From positions 384,001-448,000 of the forward strand of contig JBHLMN010000001.1 in NCBI GenBank assembly GCA_048938105.1: a stretch of 64,000 nt of DNA. The letters are read 5' to 3'. Shown here piece by piece: positions 31,753-43,402 of this stretch. Under the pieces are notes generated by a model. It worked only from the letters and a program-made list of their open reading frames with translations. It was not told the DNA's origin and did no database searches. Source of the DNA: Promethearchaeota archaeon (GTDB taxonomy: Archaea; Asgardarchaeota; Heimdallarchaeia; Hodarchaeales; Hodarchaeaceae). Numbering within the stretch: position 1 is the first letter of the stretch; every line of letters begins with the position of its first letter. A program made the position numbers and the translations under genes.

Positions 31753-32562
31753 ATGAGTGAGAAGAACATCGTTCTCAATTGTATCTGGAGAACTGATGAT
31801 TTTGTTGTCTCTGATACTAAAATTCGACCCTCAGACGATGAAGCTGCATTAATCATTGATGAAAAAATCGAGAAAATTACGGCTCAAATCCCTCGGCATT
31901 TTTCATTAGTTACAAAAAAAATAATAGAACGTCGTGTTCATTCTATTGCCAAGAGTGGTTTTACGATCCCGAAGAGACAAATAAGAATTGGAATGGGATT
32001 TGAAGTTGAAATCATTAAGGATGAGGTTATTCCTGATGTTCTTCTCCAAGAAGGCCATAAATACTCGTTAGATAGACCCACAACTGTTGTTGAGACTCCC
32101 ACCCAAATTCAAGAGGAGAAACCAGAACCAGAATACGTACCTTCTTTTTTGACTCACGAACCCGATTACATTCCTCCCAGCCAAATTATAGAGGAGAAAT
32201 CAGAACCAGAATATGTACCTACTTTTTTGACTCAAGAATCCCCAATTCCTGACACTAAAGCGCCTATACAACCAGAAACTAAACCTGACCTTTATCAAGA
32301 ACCTTTATCTGCTGAAGTATTGAAAAAAGCAGAAGAATTTGTCGATGATGCTGAAAGTATTGCTGGTCGTTTTATAATTGCCCTTACAAGAATAGGTGAT
32401 GTGTACATTACAAAAAAGAACGATCATTACTCCCTAGAGTATTCGGCTGGTCGTGTTGATTTTCGTGTTAGTAATGGTGATATCGATATCCTGAAAACTA
32501 AGCGAATACCTACAGATGATCAGACACTAGAGCAAGCAATTTCTGCTGCAACACGTAAATAA
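31753..32562 (+). CDS. Protein with divergent gelsolin-like N-terminal domain and Pro/Glu-rich duplicated linker
   Basis: AALIIDEKIEKITAQIP..SLVTKKIIERRVHSI resembles the gelsolin core of 38372..39292; EEK(P/S)EPEYVP(S/T)FLT duplicated. Confidence 0.5.
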   Translation: MSEKNIVLNCIWRTDDFVVSDTKIRPSDDEAALIIDEKIEKITAQIPRHFSLVTKKIIERRVHSIAKSGFTIPKRQIRIGMGFEVEIIKDEVIPDVLLQEGHKYSLDRPTTVVETPTQIQEEKPEPEYVPSFLTHEPDYIPPSQIIEEKSEPEYVPTFLTQESPIPDTKAPIQPETKPDLYQEPLSAEVLKKAEEFVDDAESIAGRFIIALTRIGDVYITKKNDHYSLEYSAGRVDFRVSNGDIDILKTKRIPTDDQTLEQAISAATRK

Positions 32563-32570
32563 CCTTGGTT

Positions 32571-34862
32571 CTATAATATGATTTCACGACTACGTGTAGT
32601 ATAAGTCATTATTTCTTGTGAAAACAATTCTACTAGGTTTTCATTTGTCGTGATCACCCCAATTAAATCCTCTTTTTCAGGATGTTTTGGCTCAGGACAA
32701 ACCAACAACTCCTCGGCATCACGAATACATCCCCAAAAATCTACAGTATCTAATTGTTTCAGTCTGAGATTAGCTGATGACAGAATTTTCTTCAGTGTAG
32801 ACTCGGGAACCTTCCTGAAATCTCCAATAATATTCACTCGTGTCTTCATAGGTAATTTAGAGGCTACCATCAAGGTTTGAATTTCAGGACGAGGCATGAG
32901 AATTGTTAAGGATGACTTAGCACGTAAGGTTAAATCTCTTAATATCATTATAATAGCTGTTTCTCCAACAGCTAAATCACTGGATAATAGTGAGGGCTCT
33001 ACTTCTGAAATATCAACTGATCTTGACAATTCAGAAAGTTTATTAAGCTTCTGTTTCATTTCTTTAATTGAAAACGATAAAGCAGATATCTCTTGTTCTA
33101 GTTGATGTTCAATTTTAATAACCTGAGTATTTAGAATTTCTTCAGCTTTATCCAAATTGGAATTAAAATCTTCCAGCTGTGTTTCAGCAAAACTCGTTAT
33201 AAATGTATTCATTCCAGAGATAAATAAGCTAAATGTTCTTTCAATATCAGTGATCTGATTTAATGCACTTTTTGATTCAATACTAGATTTTTCACCAAAC
33301 TTGTCAATTTCTTCTGAAATTTTATTAAGATTACTTATACTTACATCAAAAGTTTCATCTTTCTCAAAATAGGATTCCAGATTAGCTTCAAACTCTTCTG
33401 AGATATTTTGGATCAGATTAGATATCTCGTTAGAGAATTTAGCAGTAATTTCATCTAACTGTTGGTTGAAATTAGTTATTTTTTGATCAAATATAGTTTC
33501 TACATTACCTATTTTTCCCTTTATATCATTTTTACTATTATTTAGATATTCTTGGATCGAATTTCTGAACTCAGAGCCAATCTTAAGCTTTATGTCATGC
33601 ATGCTGCGTGAAAGGAGTTGAACCTCATCATCTAATATTTTCTGAACTTCATTCAGTCCATTTTCAGTTGCTTGAACAATTATGTTCTCTGTTTCATTTA
33701 AAGTATTATTCAAATTATTGACTTTTTCCAATATCATCAATTTGTCTTTGATAGTTTGTTGAATTACTTTTCTATCTCCATCTACTTGTATCAGATTAGA
33801 GATGAATTCATCTTTTCCTTTGAATAATTTTCTACTCTGTATGTCAGATATTGAGTCTTTCAATAAGGATTCTATATTATTAAGTCGGGTATCGAGTTGA
33901 GTAAATAATTCCCTCACCATTTCATTAATATCATTATATCCCTCTTTAATTTCAAGAAATTTTGACTTCTTTTGAATCGCATTCAATCTAAGACTTTCGA
34001 TTAGTGAGCCTGTTTGGTTTATTTTTCCCTCGAAATTCTTTTGTTCTTCAGAACGGTCTGTTTCAAATTGATCAAGAATTTTACCGATTTCCTCTTTAAA
34101 TACTGTAATTCCTTCTTGAATATTAGTCTTTAATAACTCAAAATTAGTTTTACTGTCCGCTTCAAGTCTTTTTAGATCTTTATTTATCATTTGAGACGCT
34201 AATTTCAATTCTTGTTCTACTTTAGGTGTGTAATGAACAAAAATACTTGGGATATTCTTTAATTTTTCAAGATTTACTTTTATAATTTCTTCATTGAGTT
34301 CTTTTGATTGTTTAACTAATAATCCTGTCTTGTTCATCAGTTCTCCGATATTATTCAGTATATTTTTTTCTGAAGATTCGATTATTTGGCGAAAATTATC
34401 CGCTAGCTTGTTAAAGTTCAGTTTAATTGGATCTAAACTTTGTGAAAAATCGTTTTCCAGCCTTGTTGTATGTTTTTGGAAATTATTTGATGCTTCCTTA
34501 AACATTTCAGAAATTTGCTTTAATTGAACCTGAAAAACACTTGAAGCTTCTTTATGGATATTAACTAAGGTGATTGGGTCATATGCAAGAAAAAATGCCT
34601 TTAGAAATGGTTCCAAAGCAATATAGCGCCCAACTTTTCCTGGAATTCTTTTAGCAAGTTTACTACCTACTAAGATTTGAAGGATTTCTTGTGTTTTTAT
34701 GTAATCTAGTCCTGAAAGTAAACTAATTTGGCCAAGAGTTGCCATCCCTAAAGAAAGCAAGTATAAGTATATTTTACCTTGATCATCATCGGTTAACCCA
34801 AGGATTGGGATAATTTCCTTAATTTCTTCTGAAGAAATCTTCAGTCCGACCATTATCCTCAC
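32571..34862 (-). CDS. TrmB-family wHTH protein with very long coiled-coil insert and C-terminal TrmB effector (PLD-like) domain
   Basis: LGLTDDDQGKIYLYLL...GRYIALEP N-terminus; RAKSSLTILMP...IRDAEELL C-terminus. Confidence 0.7.
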   Translation of the reverse strand: MRIMVGLKISSEEIKEIIPILGLTDDDQGKIYLYLLSLGMATLGQISLLSGLDYIKTQEILQILVGSKLAKRIPGKVGRYIALEPFLKAFFLAYDPITLVNIHKEASSVFQVQLKQISEMFKEASNNFQKHTTRLENDFSQSLDPIKLNFNKLADNFRQIIESSEKNILNNIGELMNKTGLLVKQSKELNEEIIKVNLEKLKNIPSIFVHYTPKVEQELKLASQMINKDLKRLEADSKTNFELLKTNIQEGITVFKEEIGKILDQFETDRSEEQKNFEGKINQTGSLIESLRLNAIQKKSKFLEIKEGYNDINEMVRELFTQLDTRLNNIESLLKDSISDIQSRKLFKGKDEFISNLIQVDGDRKVIQQTIKDKLMILEKVNNLNNTLNETENIIVQATENGLNEVQKILDDEVQLLSRSMHDIKLKIGSEFRNSIQEYLNNSKNDIKGKIGNVETIFDQKITNFNQQLDEITAKFSNEISNLIQNISEEFEANLESYFEKDETFDVSISNLNKISEEIDKFGEKSSIESKSALNQITDIERTFSLFISGMNTFITSFAETQLEDFNSNLDKAEEILNTQVIKIEHQLEQEISALSFSIKEMKQKLNKLSELSRSVDISEVEPSLLSSDLAVGETAIIMILRDLTLRAKSSLTILMPRPEIQTLMVASKLPMKTRVNIIGDFRKVPESTLKKILSSANLRLKQLDTVDFWGCIRDAEELLVCPEPKHPEKEDLIGVITTNENLVELFSQEIMTYTTRSREIIL

Positions 34863-35640: not shown

Positions 35641-36195
35641 ATGAAAGTCTGTTTGCTAGGTGACGGCGCAGTAGGGAAAACTGCTTTACGTGAACGGTAT
35701 TTAGGCAAGCAATTCTCTAGTGGGTACGTGATGACGATAGGCGCAGACTTTGCTGTAAAAAAAACAAGAATAAAAACGGAAGAAGGAGAGAAAGACGTCA
35801 AATTTCAAATTTGGGATCTTGCAGGACAACCACGTTTCAATAGTGTCAGAGAGCTTTATTATAAAGGCTCCCATGGAGGGTTATTAGTATTTGATATTAC
35901 ACGAAGAGATTCTTTTTCTAATTTAAACTCTTGGATAGAAGAATTATTCAAAAATTCGGGCCGAGGAGCGATGCCTATCGCTGTATTAGGAAATAAAGTA
36001 GATTTAAGAAATGAAGCGGATGATTGTGTCACTAGAACTGAAGCCCTAGATTATACTACAAAAATTAAGGAAGATTTTCAATTTAATTGTAACATTCCCT
36101 ATTTAGAGACTTCAGCTAAAACAGGTGAAAATGTGGATGAATCCTTTAGTGAATTAGCTCACAATATCCGAATATTTTTAACGCAATCAAAATAA
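35641..36195 (+). CDS. Rab-like small GTPase
   Basis: GDGAVGKT, TIGADF, WDLAGQ, YYKG, NKVD, ETSAK. Confidence 0.93.
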   Translation: MKVCLLGDGAVGKTALRERYLGKQFSSGYVMTIGADFAVKKTRIKTEEGEKDVKFQIWDLAGQPRFNSVRELYYKGSHGGLLVFDITRRDSFSNLNSWIEELFKNSGRGAMPIAVLGNKVDLRNEADDCVTRTEALDYTTKIKEDFQFNCNIPYLETSAKTGENVDESFSELAHNIRIFLTQSK

Positions 36196-36765: not shown

Positions 36766-37303
36766 TAGAGAAATGATGATTAGAAAAAAAATTCAAGTTG
36801 GTGTCATTGGTGATTCACAAATTCGTTCTGACGCCCAATACGAAATCAGCTATGAAATTGGTAGAGAGATTGCACAATCAAACGCAATTCTTATCTGTGG
36901 TGGGCGTGGAGGAGTGATGGAAGCAGCATGTAAAGGAGTATATGATGCAGGCGGAATCTCAGTCGGAATACTACCAACTAATGAGTCTGATCTTGAAGTG
37001 AATAAATATCTCACAATAAAAATTCCAACATTAATGAATCTAGCTCGTAATGCGATCGTTCCCTTAGCCTCCGATGGTGTGATTGCCTGTGGAGGAGGTG
37101 CAGGTACATTATCAGAGATTACATTTGCGTGGATTTATCAAAAGCCAATTGTTTGTATTAGTACGATTTTGGGATGGAGCCAAGAGATTGGAGAACGAGG
37201 ATTTATTGACCATAGAAGCTCTAAAGTTCATATTATGACTGCAAAAACAGGAAAAGAAGCAATCAAAAAAGTTCTTGAAGCTATCTTACGATTTAAACAA
37301 TGA
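36758..37303 (+). CDS. LOG family (TIGR00725-type) protein
   Basis: CGGRGGVMEA, SVGILP, ARN, GGGAGTLSE. Confidence 0.9.
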   Translation: MDNREMMIRKKIQVGVIGDSQIRSDAQYEISYEIGREIAQSNAILICGGRGGVMEAACKGVYDAGGISVGILPTNESDLEVNKYLTIKIPTLMNLARNAIVPLASDGVIACGGGAGTLSEITFAWIYQKPIVCISTILGWSQEIGERGFIDHRSSKVHIMTAKTGKEAIKKVLEAILRFKQ

Positions 37304-38113
37304 TAAAAGCCCAGATTTATCATTCAGAATTTCAGAAATTCCATCGCATAACGCTTTCAATAATCCATCATTTTTGGGATTGATTAAATCAGAGTAATCA
37401 TTTAGTGTAGAATGCAATTCTAAACTATCTAATCTTTGCACAGCATTAAATATTCTATTAGCAATCTCAAGATAGTTTTCTGTGTTGGAAACAGTCGAAT
37501 TGGCTTTATCTTCAAATGAAAGATATTTTCCGCAATCTTCTATCTCATAAGCATTAATTTCAGCTAGGGTCAAATAGGTTCTCATTTTTGGAGAAAGAAT
37601 TGACATTTCCTGGCTCCAGGAATATAACGTTTCAAAACATGATACAAAATCTTTTTTGTTGCAGAATAATCCTGCATAGCAATAATAAAGGTCTGAGACT
37701 ACATTATTATTATGCTTTCTTGCTTCAAGAATCAAATTATGTAGATATGAAAGGAATTCTGACTCCTGAAACTTCTTATCTATTATTATATAATTACGAA
37801 TAGTTTGAATGCAATTTTCAAGCGAGACTGCTCTTAAATCTACAAATATCCTTGGTATCAACTCAGCATTAACTCGTTCATTTGGGTTTCGACTGATATT
37901 CATTATAAGAGCAAGTGTTAAATCACAGGCCAATTTTGCCTTATTTCCTGAAGCAAAAAGAGGTATAGCCTTAGAAATCACCATTCCAGCATGCTTAGGC
38001 TCACCAGAACGAAATGCCCTTTGAATAGCTCCTTGTAGCATTTGAAGACCATCAAACCAGTGACCTTGGTGGAGTTCAGCCAATCCTTTGCTAAACCAAG
38101 GATCTTTTATCAT
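37286..38113 (-). CDS. Alpha-helical repeat protein, Get4/TRC35-like (start at ATG 38113 after an AGGAG SD)
   Basis: GHWFDGLQM...R...A...LF.S...A.DL aligns without gaps to the recalled Get4 N-terminus. Confidence 0.5.
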   Translation of the reverse strand: MIKDPWFSKGLAELHQGHWFDGLQMLQGAIQRAFRSGEPKHAGMVISKAIPLFASGNKAKLACDLTLALIMNISRNPNERVNAELIPRIFVDLRAVSLENCIQTIRNYIIIDKKFQESEFLSYLHNLILEARKHNNNVVSDLYYCYAGLFCNKKDFVSCFETLYSWSQEMSILSPKMRTYLTLAEINAYEIEDCGKYLSFEDKANSTVSNTENYLEIANRIFNAVQRLDSLELHSTLNDYSDLINPKNDGLLKALCDGISEILNDKSGLLSLFKS

Positions 38114-38242
38114 TTTTATTCTCCTTTTGTTTTGTGTTTTAATGAACTCATTAATTTTTAAAACCTTGGGAAAATTTAAAAAAACAATCGCTTCCAACAA
38201 ATGAACAGAACCTTACTTCTGAGCTTTTGTTGTGTACCACAG

Positions 38243-38371: not shown

Positions 38372-39292
38372 TTGAGTGATTCTGAATATGTTAAAAAATA
38401 TTCTGTAGAAGATGATGGCACTTTAACTCCTACCTCTCTTTCTTCGATGTCAGATCTTGCTGATAACAATGTTTTCATAATTGTTGATGAAGATACGCGT
38501 AAAATATTCATTTGGAAAGGTGAGAAAGCACCTGTAAGGAGAAAATTCATCTCAGCTAAAGCAGCACAACAAATGCGGCAGGAAAAGTATGGAATGGTCT
38601 ATCGTATAGAAAGTCTTGATCCAGGATTGGAAGGAGCTGACTTCCTCGCATTATTTGGTGTAAAACCTGAAGACAGAGAAGTAGCGACACCTGCAGCCTC
38701 AGTAGCAGAGACACCAACCCCCAAACCAGCTCCCACACCAGCTCCAACTCGCGCACCTGCCCGTGCGCCAACCCGTGCACCAACTCCTACATCAGCTCCA
38801 GCCCGTGCAGCAACCCCAACACCAGCTCCAGCCCGTGCACCAACTCACAAACCAACACCAGCTCCAACTCATGCAGCAACCCCCGTACCAGCTCCAATCC
38901 ATGCACCAAAAGTTGTAAAAGAAACCGAAGTAGTAGTTACAGCACCTGTTAGGACTGTCACACCAACCACTCTTGACGAAGTATCCATAAAACTAAAAGA
39001 TCTAGAAATACCTGATAATATGGAACGTGAAATCGTCATTATTGGTAATTTGGTCTTTTCTGTTATTAAAGAGCACCTAGCTCTATTTTCCAAAGATGTC
39101 GTGAAGTTAGAACCAATGGATGACCTTCCCTCAGGAATTTTCCCAGCTGCTGATTATCAAGTTAGACTTTTCATTGAAAATGGAAGGGTAATATTCACTG
39201 AACTTCTTAGAAAAAAAACGCGCTCTGAGAGAGAAGAATTCATTGATGACATGCGAAAATCTCTCCAAGATTTATCGAAGATGGGAATTTAA
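38372..39292 (+). CDS. Gelsolin-domain protein with Pro/Ala/Thr-rich linker and C-terminal domain (1DGelX-like)
   Basis: NVFIIVDEDTRKIFIWKGEKAPVRRKFISAKAAQQM gelsolin core. Confidence 0.85.
   Translation: MSDSEYVKKYSVEDDGTLTPTSLSSMSDLADNNVFIIVDEDTRKIFIWKGEKAPVRRKFISAKAAQQMRQEKYGMVYRIESLDPGLEGADFLALFGVKPEDREVATPAASVAETPTPKPAPTPAPTRAPARAPTRAPTPTSAPARAATPTPAPARAPTHKPTPAPTHAATPVPAPIHAPKVVKETEVVVTAPVRTVTPTTLDEVSIKLKDLEIPDNMEREIVIIGNLVFSVIKEHLALFSKDVVKLEPMDDLPSGIFPAADYQVRLFIENGRVIFTELLRKKTRSEREEFIDDMRKSLQDLSKMGI
38680..38910 (+). repeat. In-frame low-complexity repeats (PAPT / RAPT units)
   Basis: CCAGCTCC / CGTGCA units encoding a P/A/T/R-rich linker. Confidence 0.8.
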
Positions 39293-39314: not shown

Positions 39315-39851
39315 GTGCCCGACGAATATTTACTCAAAATTTGTGCTATTGGATCAGGTAGTGTTGGAAAAACCTCACTTATCAGGAGATTTGCTGAGGG
39401 AAAGTTCACAACGAACTATTTACCTACACTAGGAGTTGACATTACTACTAAACAGATTCAAGTAGATAACAACAATGTTAAACTAATCCTTGTAGATACA
39501 GCGGGCCAGGAGTTTTTTGGCAAATTACGACCAAGTTATTACCGAGGTGCATCTGCTTGCCTTATCATGTTTGCCTTAGACGAAAAATCATCATTTGAGG
39601 CTATTCCTGACTGGTTAGCAGAATTTCGAAAACACATTCCAGAGGTCTCGGTTCCGATTGCTTTGGCTGGGAATAAGAAAGATCTTGAAGAAAAACGCCA
39701 AGTATCTACTGTTGAAGCTAATACGTTAGCTTCAACCTATAATATGACTTATTATGAAACTTCTGCAAAATTAGGCGGAGAAGAGATTGAGGAAATATTT
39801 GTTGGTTTAACGAGGCGTGTATTACAAAAGAAACAACAAAATAGCATTTAA
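39315..39851 (+). CDS. Rab-like small GTPase
   Basis: GSGSVGKT, YLPTLGVD, DTAGQE, YYRGA, NKKD, ETSAK. Confidence 0.93.
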   Translation: MPDEYLLKICAIGSGSVGKTSLIRRFAEGKFTTNYLPTLGVDITTKQIQVDNNNVKLILVDTAGQEFFGKLRPSYYRGASACLIMFALDEKSSFEAIPDWLAEFRKHIPEVSVPIALAGNKKDLEEKRQVSTVEANTLASTYNMTYYETSAKLGGEEIEEIFVGLTRRVLQKKQQNSI

Positions 39852-39889: not shown

Positions 39890-40642
39890 ATGCAGGCAAA
39901 TTCCGACTTTGAAGTCATAAAAAGAGACCATCAAGGGGTTCCAGTAGTCAAAATAGTATTTTGGGGACCAACCTTAGCGGGAAAGACCACTGCACTCACT
40001 ATTACAAAAGTATTGAAGAGTCTAGAAGACCCTGAGAACGTTTATAAATTCTTAAAATTAGAAGATCCCACAGGTCGGACTTTATTTTTCGATCAGGCGA
40101 TTTTTGGCGTAGGGAAAACCGCTGCTGGATTACCAATTCTAAAATACCATCTTTTTACTGTTCCTGGCCAAGAACGACATGCTGGACAACGAAAAGTCGT
40201 TTTACGTGGAGCACATGGTTTGATTGTCGTCATTGACTCCGAGAAATCCCGATGGGAAGAAAATAAGTTCTCTTTACGGGAAATTAACACTCTTGCTGGT
40301 GATAAGCTAGCTAGTGGTACGTTACCTTACCACATTATGTTAAATAAGATGGATCTTCCACGAGAACAACGAATTTCATCACTAGAAGTAGGAAAATTAT
40401 TGAGTGAATCTGGAGTTGCAGCAAGTCTTCGAGATGCAGCTGTTAGAATAGTTGAAGTATCATGTCTCGAAGCAAGGGATGACTTAAAAGCACTTCTCTC
40501 AAAAAGTGACCGAAGTACGATCGTAGATGCTGATGGAAAGTTAAGAAAAGAAGTTCGACCGTTAAGTGTCACCCGTGTCATTAAATCTGTTGAAAGCCTG
40601 ATTCGTGAAATTATCATCCAAATGATGAAACAACAAAGTTAG
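39890..40642 (+). CDS. MglA-family small GTPase
   Basis: KIVFWGPTLAGKTT, RTLFFD, TVPGQ (MglA-type G3), NKMD. Confidence 0.85.
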   Translation: MQANSDFEVIKRDHQGVPVVKIVFWGPTLAGKTTALTITKVLKSLEDPENVYKFLKLEDPTGRTLFFDQAIFGVGKTAAGLPILKYHLFTVPGQERHAGQRKVVLRGAHGLIVVIDSEKSRWEENKFSLREINTLAGDKLASGTLPYHIMLNKMDLPREQRISSLEVGKLLSESGVAASLRDAAVRIVEVSCLEARDDLKALLSKSDRSTIVDADGKLRKEVRPLSVTRVIKSVESLIREIIIQMMKQQS

Positions 40643-41443: not shown

Positions 41444-43402
41444 ATGATTAGTCAAGAGACTTCAAGTGACATTCTTGTGATCCATCAAAACAAGATTGTC
41501 TTTAGCTCTGGTCAGGGACCCCTGACGAAGCACTCAAAGATTAGTGCAACAGTAACTCAAGTACTCACCCTGTTTTCTGAACGTATAATGAAAGGAGAGC
41601 AAATTCATTTCATTCGTTTTGAAAAACACCGTATGATTTTTCTGTTCTCTCAAAAAATCAAAGAAAATCAATTAGTTGCTACTGTTTTAATTCCTATCGA
41701 ACGAAGTGCTAGACAAGTCATACCTGCCATGAGTATTATTTTGCATATGCTAGAGGAATTCTATAAAGGCAATATTGAAGATGCAAAAAATAGTCAATTA
41801 GATTGTTTTTATCAGATTCTATCCTCGCCAGAAAATTCGCTTATTATCGTTCCAAGATCTCCTGAAGGAATATTAGCTGCTCTAATCATATTGACCGCCT
41901 TTGCTCATGACATGCAACTTGGGGTTCAGAGGATTGCCTCTAATTTACACTTTGTGGATCCTAATAACCCAATAGAACTGAATGAGATTGTTCGTATATC
42001 TGAAACTAATAGGATCCTTTCTTTCGTCCCTCTTCCTGGAGGAGAAGATAATGCCAATATCCTTCTATTTGGTTTGGCCTCACCTCGCAGACAATACTTC
42101 TCTGCTTATCCTGATGAGCAAATTTATGATGTTATTAGTCGCATTTTCGGAAATCAATCTAATGCAGCAAAAATGAGAAAATTTATTGCAAATAAAGATG
42201 CACAAGAAATTGCACAATCAATCTCTCTTCTTCCTCAATCTGAAGATGATTTTGTTCGTAAAGAAGTTCTTTTATCCACTGTTTTACAACCTGGTAAAGA
42301 TATAATTGTTACTATGACAACTCCAGTTATGCAAAAACTCCGAAACTTAGCTTCTACTACTCCCATTACTGAAAAAGTTCCTGTTATTAAGGAAACCCCT
42401 GCTTTCAAGGAACCTCCTATTGTTAAAGAAACTCCTGTTATCAGGGAAACTCCTGTCGCTAAAGAGACGCTTTTCACGAAAGAAGTTCCTAAGTCAACTA
42501 CTGATCTCGAAAGCATACCAATTCAATCTCCTGTTAAAATATCCAAAGAAGGCCAACAAGGGCTAAAGCATACAGATTTTGAATTAGACACAACATTAGA
42601 GCTAGTTGCAGAACCAGACGCGATTCCAGAAGAAACACAAAAATTGGTAACTAAACCTATCGAGACCATACCAGTAAGACATGTTGATGTTGATAGCGAT
42701 GTTTTAGCGCGCTTAGATGAATCAAGAAGAAGGGGGTTTGAATATAGATTAGATTCAGTTCCCTTGATAATTGATACTACTCCTTACGTAATTAATATGC
42801 CAGAAACTCAGAATTTACCTTTTCAAGAATCTAGTATTACTATCAGGCTTTTTCAGGAAAGAAATGGTCATTTTGTAATACATATTTACACATTTCTTGA
42901 TCGCTTGTCTGCTTTGAGAAACTCTTTAGAAGATCTTTCAATTAGGATTGGAGGAGAAACTCACTTAAGAGAAAATCATGTCTCTTTAGAAGGCCCTATT
43001 GATAAACAACAATTGGTTCTTCGAGCATTACTATGGTTAGGCATTATAGAATATCTTACACAAGTTGAAATAAAATTACAAAAGCTTCCGAGATTATTTG
43101 AGATTCCTAATGAAGGTTCAATCCTAATTATTCCCCCAAAAAGAGAATACATAAAGGAAAAAATTCCTAGCAAATTTCAGAACTTCGTTGAAGAATTGAA
43201 AATCCGCAACCAAATTGAACAAGAAGAACTCTGGACACTAGGAAAAGCTCAAAATGAAATCATCTCCCAAATAATGTCTCCTCTCAAACATGGAGAAGGC
43301 GTAGTTTTCATAGCTTCCGAAAATAACCAAGAAATGGAAGAAATAGCCTTATTTCTATTATATGTTTCTGAAATCTGTGGTATTGGATTTTCGAGATGGT
43401 AA
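41444..43402 (+). CDS. Hypothetical multidomain protein; N-terminal longin-like + DENN-like region, KETP repeat linker
   Basis: First ~110 aa follow a beta-beta-alpha-beta-beta-beta-alpha longin pattern; then YQILSSPENSLIIVP..ILAALIIL; (K/R)E(T/P)P repeats near 42370-42490. Confidence 0.45.
   Translation: MISQETSSDILVIHQNKIVFSSGQGPLTKHSKISATVTQVLTLFSERIMKGEQIHFIRFEKHRMIFLFSQKIKENQLVATVLIPIERSARQVIPAMSIILHMLEEFYKGNIEDAKNSQLDCFYQILSSPENSLIIVPRSPEGILAALIILTAFAHDMQLGVQRIASNLHFVDPNNPIELNEIVRISETNRILSFVPLPGGEDNANILLFGLASPRRQYFSAYPDEQIYDVISRIFGNQSNAAKMRKFIANKDAQEIAQSISLLPQSEDDFVRKEVLLSTVLQPGKDIIVTMTTPVMQKLRNLASTTPITEKVPVIKETPAFKEPPIVKETPVIRETPVAKETLFTKEVPKSTTDLESIPIQSPVKISKEGQQGLKHTDFELDTTLELVAEPDAIPEETQKLVTKPIETIPVRHVDVDSDVLARLDESRRRGFEYRLDSVPLIIDTTPYVINMPETQNLPFQESSITIRLFQERNGHFVIHIYTFLDRLSALRNSLEDLSIRIGGETHLRENHVSLEGPIDKQQLVLRALLWLGIIEYLTQVEIKLQKLPRLFEIPNEGSILIIPPKREYIKEKIPSKFQNFVEELKIRNQIEQEELWTLGKAQNEIISQIMSPLKHGEGVVFIASENNQEMEEIALFLLYVSEICGIGFSRW

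Follow-up and report, generated by a model that had tools for sequence, protein, structure and literature searches.

Does part of the machinery by which eukaryotes deliver tail-anchored membrane proteins have a counterpart in the archaea? In eukaryotes, the ATPase Get3 carries tail-anchored membrane proteins after being primed by the adaptor Get4, and the host of the DNA studied here belongs to the Hodarchaeales, the lineage thought to be closest to eukaryotes. The initial annotation of the window (the whole stretch of DNA analysed, 64,000 nucleotides long) had read one open reading frame (ORF) as a candidate archaeal homologue of Get4/TRC35 and as a pre-eukaryotic GET pre-targeting factor. 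Herein, we argue that the encoded protein is probably a very distant Get4/TRC35 relative. We consider it reasonably likely that it is a remote homologue whose most probable role is to serve the Get3-type ATPase of the same genome as a stand-alone cytosolic adaptor.

The ORF at 37286-38113 is a real gene, given that about 70 homologues exist (34-74% identity), that one copy is found in each of the 21 genomes of the same genus, and that the gene order is conserved. It runs uninterrupted on the minus strand from an ATG at 38113 to a stop at 37286 and encodes 275 aa. A TTG further upstream, at 38200, probably does not serve as the start, since GGAG lies 7 nt 5' of the ATG and the starts of the homologues coincide with its Met. 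The ORF shares 18 bases with the end of a SLOG-family gene that is convergent with it. The product is a soluble, single-copy, and conserved alpha-solenoid with the size and helix order of Get4, and no paralogue was found in the host genome. The features of the gene and its protein are collected in the table.

Table. Position of the Get4-like gene and of its protein segments in the window, with the evidence for each.
Feature	Coordinates	Strand	Basis
Get4-like all-helical alpha-solenoid gene	37286..38113	-	ORF, translation, ~70 homologues, AlphaFold2 model
Putative ribosome-binding site AGGAG, 7 nt 5' of ATG	38121..38125	-	sequence reading
N-terminal helices, residues 12-74, ungapped against Get4 22-84	37892..38080	-	hmmsearch against PDB, hhalign
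Helix 2, residues 17-35, stripe F20/Q24/G28/R32, putative Get3-docking face	38009..38065	-	column conservation
C-terminal three-helix bundle, residues 209-264, like C-terminal helices of Get4 and Sec17/SNAP	37322..37489	-	hhalign, Pfam, PDB
Amphipathic C-terminal tail, G-L-F-S-L-F type	37289..37315	-	conservation, end-to-end alignment

The distribution of the family is narrow. A profile search across 399 Asgard genomes found it in 23, including all 21 genomes of the host genus (Hodarchaeales) with one copy each. One distant member (G078; E 9.8e-6) comes from a sister family in the same order, and another (G396, its protein being L029; E 4.7e-10) from a separate class of three genomes that bears the NCBI label Heimdallarchaeota. 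At that sensitivity, no members beyond the host genus and these two were found among the 399 genomes. The source labels of the homologues read Hodarchaeales, Hodarchaeota, or Heimdallarchaeota.

In genomes of the host family, the gene is part of a fixed block, in which its neighbours are encoded on the opposite strand. These are a Rab-like GTPase, Trm56, and SLOG to one side of it and a gelsolin-domain protein, a Rab-like GTPase, an Arf-like GTPase, and Sua5 to the other. No GET component was found in this neighbourhood, and the G078 and G396 members lie in genomic contexts that differ from the block. Several of the flanking genes keep their order across the host family, namely two Ras/Rab-like GTPases (window 35641-36195 and 39315-39851), a divergent Arf-like GTPase (39890-40642), and the gelsolin-domain protein, which has a Pro/Thr-rich repeat linker (38372-39292). 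The window also encodes, on the minus strand, a 763-aa protein (32571-34862) with an N-terminal TrmB-type helix-turn-helix, a long, coiled-coil-looking central region, and a C-terminal part like TrmB sensor domains; the protein is kept in 17 of the compared loci. Two more conserved proteins, one of 652 aa with a Pro-rich low-complexity middle (41444-43402) and one of 269 aa (31753-32562), have no Pfam match at E 0.01.

Taken alone, the protein resembles Get4 at chance level, and the likeness is significant only as a family profile. Single-sequence phmmer found no Get4 in the PDB at E<=10 and none among 1.8 billion representatives, its matches being confined to Asgard relatives and consensus TPRs. 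Scans against Pfam and NCBIfam gave nothing meaningful, and neither the protein nor any of its 42 close homologues matched Pfam GET4. Every family member scored below the GET4 gathering threshold of 30 bits (the best reached 18.6 bits), and a Pfam GET4 search of the 399 Asgard genomes returned nothing above the cut-off. Profiles support the homology claimed at the outset as a remote relation; for the single protein it does not rise above chance.

The profile that carries this relation (A3) was built from Asgard sequences only, picked without reference to Get4, and searched against 177,635 PDB sequences with hmmsearch. It retrieved yeast Get4 (E 3.9e-4) and the TRC35 proteins of human and fish (0.025-0.035); all remaining matches were designed proteins (helical repeats), and no SNAP or natural TPR appeared under E 10, both being in the library. 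Get4 was also the best natural PDB match of a profile without the two distant members (A2; E 0.058), of an N-half profile (E 0.017), and of the six most divergent members with the Get4-like protein itself left out (E 0.12; 8 of 11 matches). In some of these searches (A2 and N-half), designed helical repeats equalled or outscored Get4. By sequence, then, the family profile lies nearer to Get4 than to any other natural PDB protein.

A profile-profile comparison was made against 34 Get4 proteins, all fungal, which had been fetched with a 53-residue seed from the A3-PDB alignment. Here, hhalign aligned the family with Get4 end to end over 271 columns (score 45.1, P 1.5e-5, probability 79%), and the divergent set over 220 columns with a probability of 88%. 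Controls fell below the score of 45.1: the reversed profile gave 14.8, column shuffles at most 20.6, and shuffles of 18-column blocks at most 32.6. A Lokiarchaeal TPR family comprising the best Pfam GET4 scorers reached 22.8, and a 265-aa Heimdallarchaeial TPR family reached 30.7 over 55 columns only. Both distant members, moreover, match Pfam GET4 in a colinear manner in their C-terminal half (E 0.0016 and 0.015, below the cut-off) and show no match to Pfam SNAP.

Several candidates were discarded on the way. The top Asgard scorers with Pfam GET4, a TPR family of ~635 aa and a canonical TPR protein of 276 aa, are false positives and were reused as controls. A SNAP-scoring TPR family of ~265 aa from other Heimdallarchaeia was rejected as an orthologue, for only 35 columns align. 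Its members (L169-L188; 265-290 aa) recur in two other Heimdallarchaeial families, score with Pfam SNAP, and share generic repeats with the Get4-like protein, nothing more.

Not all sequence measures agree. ESM features of the Get4-like protein are nearest to GET4 (0.94, with 217 of 256 shared), clusters that contain SNAPs scoring 0.79-0.87, whereas those of L029 lean toward SNAP/HAP40 clusters (0.90) over GET4 (0.87). For the C-half profile, the best natural PDB match was Sec17 (E 0.23), with Get4 absent under E 10. In the reciprocal direction, an HMM of fungal Get4 only ranks the Get4-like ORF 11th in its own genome and gives the family a mean of 5.0 bits, against 5.1 for an unrelated control TPR family.

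The two stretches that had been quoted in support of Get4 homology are present at residues 11-70 and 140-156. For the former, the ungapped register with Get4 was reproduced by the tools (positions 13-74 against yeast Get4 23-84); in the hhalign comparison, residues 12-74 align with 22-84 of Get4, its part that binds the Get3 ATPase domain, over 62 ungapped columns (P 5.8e-5). The latter, put forward as a second Get4 block, fared worse, since it aligns to Get4 only with gaps and at low confidence.

Residue by residue, G17, W19/F20, Q24, R32, A42, and L65 fall on G27, Y29/Y30, Q34, R42, A52, and L75 of Get4, so that the glycine, the aromatic pair, and the Q, R, A, and L listed in the initial annotation hold good; the D of its 'A.DL' occurs in only 32-43% of the family. 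In the helix-2 motif of Get4 (YYEAHQ..R...R), Y29, Y30, E31, Q34, and R42 stand opposite W19, F20, D21, Q24, and R32. Get4 H33, R37, N41, and D74 are unconserved in the family, and the YEAHQ block is diverged, as had been noted. The family-invariant residues F20/Q24/G28/R32 form one i/i+4 helical stripe that lies on the invariant Y30/Q34/T38/R42 of Get4. This face of helix 2 is a putative docking site for Get3, the residue-level view of the Get4 side of the interface being drawn from Get4 conservation. At the other end, a short amphipathic tail closes 63 of 68 members and is aligned to Get4's C-terminal helix. In Get4, this helix (299-308) forms a lid on the Get3 chamber (PMC12506534), and the conserved tail is a candidate counterpart of it.

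An AlphaFold2 model of the protein (pLDDT 91, pTM 0.88) is an all-helical solenoid of 16 helical segments, whose number and order fit Get4. With Foldseek, TRC35 (6AU8) came first (E 6.6e-4) but tied with Sec17 (8.6e-4); the TM-score was only about 0.33-0.34 for Get4/TRC35, and it was 0.43 for Sec17. Aligned as a whole with VIA-align, the model gave Z 12.7-13.2 against Sec17 (rmsd 7.3-7.9 over ~230 residues) and Z 8.7-11.2 against Get4 (rmsd 9.8-11.0), with HAP40 and PCI solenoids close behind. A Z near 13 with an rmsd above 7 is in the range of a common helical arrangement or generic helical repeats. Residue 1 of the model aligns to Sec17 residue 32-35, meaning that the ~30 N-terminal residues of SNAP are missing. 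For the G396 member, with a lower-quality model, Sec17 and TRC35 tied again. Atlas structure searches returned generic TPR proteins only.

Judged by these models, the protein would belong among Get4- and SNAP-shaped solenoids, with Get4 not singled out; repeat folds are known to converge easily (PMC13734099). What decides for Get4 is the sequence signal at the N-terminus, together with colinearity over the full length, the lack of the SNAP N-terminal segment, and the tail. Set against generic TPR and SNAP proteins, Get4 was preferred by sequence profiles and by the language-model features of the protein itself, and not by structure, where Sec17 ties with or beats it, nor by the C-half searched against the PDB.

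Which partners could such an adaptor have? On contig C38, the genome has a gene for a Get3-type ATPase with a single domain and a CxxC motif, unlinked to the Get4-like gene and 71-92% conserved within the genus. The ATPase belongs to the archaeal type, matching an archaeal structure at E 3e-72 and the closest eukaryotic Get3 at 1e-55. This protein was mapped to a list of yeast Get3 residues, in yeast numbering, via fish and S. pombe Get3. The list gives the residues that bind Get1, Get2, and Get4 (PMC11170914). Of these, C38 Get3 keeps E253, E304, and E320; a W stands in place of Y250 and an E in place of D308, the other six being different. Since the patch is similarly conserved in euryarchaeal Get3, its conservation does not discriminate, and because Get3 homologues also occur in lineages without the Get4-like family, co-occurrence with Get3 is equally uninformative.

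Other Get3-like genes were seen as well. A second one (L002:1471-2133; G000:C33, a 2543-base contig) is cut by the contig end and adjoins an eRF1-like gene. It is 42% identical to C38 Get3 and, with most genus members having one close copy and a genome contamination of 7.25%, may be a contaminant. The G396 genome (L139, L142-L145) has five matches to the ArsA/Get3 family, including a tandem pair without CxxC.

Further along the putative route, the genome encodes an insertase of the EMC3/TMCO1 family. This EMC3/TMCO1 (DUF106) homologue (L146:637-1935, minus strand; G000:C18) is, at 432 aa, unusually long for its family, with an apparent large Ser/Thr-rich insert between transmembrane parts. A candidate client of Get3 is a SNARE-like tail-anchored protein of ~200 aa with a C-terminal transmembrane segment, encoded on the same contig ~39 kb before the window (G000:C52:344658-345389, minus strand). 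Its Pfam matches, SNARE at E 6.6e-4 and Synaptobrevin at E 0.002, both lie below the cut-off, and it is probably a Heimdall prototypic SNARE-like protein. A crude count of tail-anchored proteins was uninformative, as most matches resemble large secreted proteins with a C-terminal anchor. In this genome, which is 99% complete, a domain search that would miss a diverged partner detected neither the Sgt2 dimerisation domain (SGTA_dimer), nor the Get4-binding domain of Get5 (Get5_bdg), nor Get1. Several small ubiquitin-like ORFs are present (two adjacent ones at G000:C63:203896-205040 and one at C38:97286-97624).

Co-folding of the Get4-like protein with a Get3 dimer, ATP, and Mg reached an ipSAE of 0.57, against 0.17 for the best control; the runs agreed in at least 75% of contacts, and the partner pLDDT was at least 84. 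Of 80 solved pairs, 58 passed the mark applied here, and of 110 mismatched pairs, 2 did; with an ipSAE of 0.60 or less, however, it was passed by only 7 of the 80 and by both of the mismatched pairs. The output named no interface. As Get3-Get4 complexes have already been solved, the pass may reflect likeness to them, and the predicted complex weakly supports Get3 binding. For a pre-eukaryotic GET pre-targeting factor, as first suggested, this weak co-folding signal is what speaks in favour; Get5, Sgt2, and Get1, on the other hand, were not found.

By analogy with Get4, we infer that the protein may bind Get3, control its ATPase, and promote client loading. Helix 2 (F20/Q24/G28/R32) would dock across the ATP-bound closed Get3 dimer and slow down ATP turnover, and the C-terminal amphipathic tail would reach the rim of the hydrophobic groove of Get3. 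Thereby primed for tail-anchored clients, such as the SNARE-like tail-anchored protein of the same contig, Get3 could pass them on to the insertase of the EMC3/TMCO1 family. Unlike eukaryotic Get4, the adaptor would seemingly play this role without Get5/Ubl4A, Sgt2, or Get1.

How strongly should each part be believed? That the protein is closer to Get4 than to the SNAPs we regard as likely; that it is closer to Get4 and also binds Get3, as predicted, is somewhat less assured, though still favoured. The main rival, which we deem unlikely, takes the protein for an unspecialised representative of a solenoid superfamily comprising Get4, SNAP, and HAP40. The protein would then stem from an ancestor before the Get4-SNAP split and serve as adaptor for an ATPase or a helical partner without being specifically a Get4 orthologue. 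This rival stays alive because the signal is split, with Get4 in front and SNAP-like features behind: the N-half leads to Get4 and the C-half to Sec17 in the PDB but to GET4 in Pfam, Get4 and SNAP chains rank ahead of other solenoids in Foldseek for two separate models, and the features of L029 are SNAP/HAP40-like. Nevertheless, full-length profiles never retrieve a SNAP, the conserved stripe matches the invariant stripe of Get4, and the protein lacks the ~30 N-terminal SNAP residues while having a Get4-like hydrophobic tail. The Get4 profile, too, finds no SNAP in the PDB, and therefore no sequence-level kinship between Get4 and SNAP is shown here.

Less probable still is a lineage-specific TPR-like scaffold with a convergent likeness to Get4, whose partner would be a neighbouring small GTPase or the gelsolin-domain protein. 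Against a scaffold of this kind, Get4 is the natural protein chosen by four profiles of differing composition, the whole-length colinear alignment exceeds all controls, the gene and its neighbours are on opposite strands, and both distant members occur in other contexts. What can be said for it is the fixed block that the gene forms with a pair of Ras/Rab-like GTPases, one Arf-like GTPase, and the gelsolin-domain protein, the restriction to 23 of 399 Asgard genomes, the E-values, which are all modest with designed helical repeats on a par with or above Get4 in some searches, and the generic TPR proteins that alone emerged from the atlas structure searches. Most improbable of all, in our estimate, is a proto-SNAP, an adaptor in the manner of Sec17 that would attach to SNARE-like bundles and bring in an AAA ATPase (Cdc48-type) for their disassembly. 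Sec17 is indeed the best structural match (Z up to 13.2), its C-terminal bundle resembles the C-half, and the genome has a SNARE-like tail-anchored protein, with the Get4-like gene located among Rab-like GTPases. However, such Z-scores at an rmsd above 7 fit a common helical arrangement, and only one SNARE-like gene was found. No family member matches Pfam SNAP (PF14938), while eight matches elsewhere in the genome do, and SNAP is absent from the full-profile PDB matches. The SNAP N-terminal segment, which carries the membrane-binding loop, is missing.

Returning to the remote Get4 homologue, we file the protein as Get4-like rather than as a proven PF04190 member, since it falls below the Pfam threshold and no Get5/Sgt2 partners are detectable. 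A bolder version would make it a true Get4 orthologue that regulates Get3 in Hodarchaeales and one other Asgard lineage, in a minimal pre-targeting step without Get5/Sgt2, with its mixed Get4/SNAP features reflecting the state before the eukaryotic Get4 and SNAP solenoids parted. We find this version tentative and rather doubtful; if true, it would link the delivery of tail anchors and the handling of SNAREs through a single archaeal ancestor.

In the literature searched, Get4/TRC35 is described from eukaryotes only, whereas the roots of Get3 and of the insertase family are archaeal (PMC6593721, PMC8675477, 10.1101/810531). Among the same literature, no paper joins Get4 or TRC35 with Asgard archaea or Hodarchaeales with the GET pathway, and neither of two recent surveys based on structure mentions a Get4-like family in its main text. 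The present analysis establishes the controls for the profiles, the bridge to Pfam GET4 through two distant members, and the split between a Get4 and a SNAP-like signal. Part of the eukaryotic tail-anchor delivery step may thus predate eukaryotes. A Get4 relative confined to the seemingly closest lineage to eukaryotes would add to the eukaryotic signature proteins and would suggest an order for the assembly of the GET pathway, with Get3 followed by Get4 and then by Get5/Sgt2/Get1. Since both partners are small soluble proteins, this reading is directly testable.

Compared with the known systems, the protein shares most with Get4/TRC35 (PF04190 GET4, formerly DUF410; PDB 2WPV, 3LKU, 3LPZ, 4PWX, 6AU8, 7RU9, 9NS5). 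It is of similar length (275 against about 300-330 aa), a stand-alone helical solenoid of ~14 helices with a short C-terminal amphipathic helix, and has the ungapped N-terminal alignment, the aromatic-Q-small-R stripe on helix 2, and the end-to-end profile alignment; likewise, it is single copy, with a Get3-type ATPase in the same genome. It differs in its low identity (~14-17%, below the Pfam cut-off), in not keeping H33, R37, N41, and D74, and in the solenoid curvature of the model (rmsd ~10 A), as well as in having no detectable Get5/Ubl4A, Bag6-type partner, Sgt2, or Get1 and a Get3 of the archaeal type. To the SNAPs (alpha/gamma-SNAP and yeast Sec17; PF14938; PDB 1QQE, 2IFU, 9CRU) and HAP40, it is closest in overall shape (Z 11-13), with a similar size and a weak similarity in the C-terminal bundle (E 0.23). 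Unlike SNAP/Sec17, it gives no Pfam SNAP or full-profile match, lacks the N-terminal 30 residues, has a Get4-like conserved motif at its N-terminus, and carries a hydrophobic C-terminal tail. Lastly, archaeal Get3-like ATPases form group 12 of Farkas et al. (PMC6593721). As in archaeal systems of Get3 with a DUF106/EMC3-TMCO1 insertase, the putative partner is a single-domain protein with CxxC, and a gene of the EMC3/TMCO1 family is present. No pre-targeting factor for archaeal Get3 appears in the literature searched and, in contrast with the described archaeal Get3 systems, the Get4-like protein would be the first.
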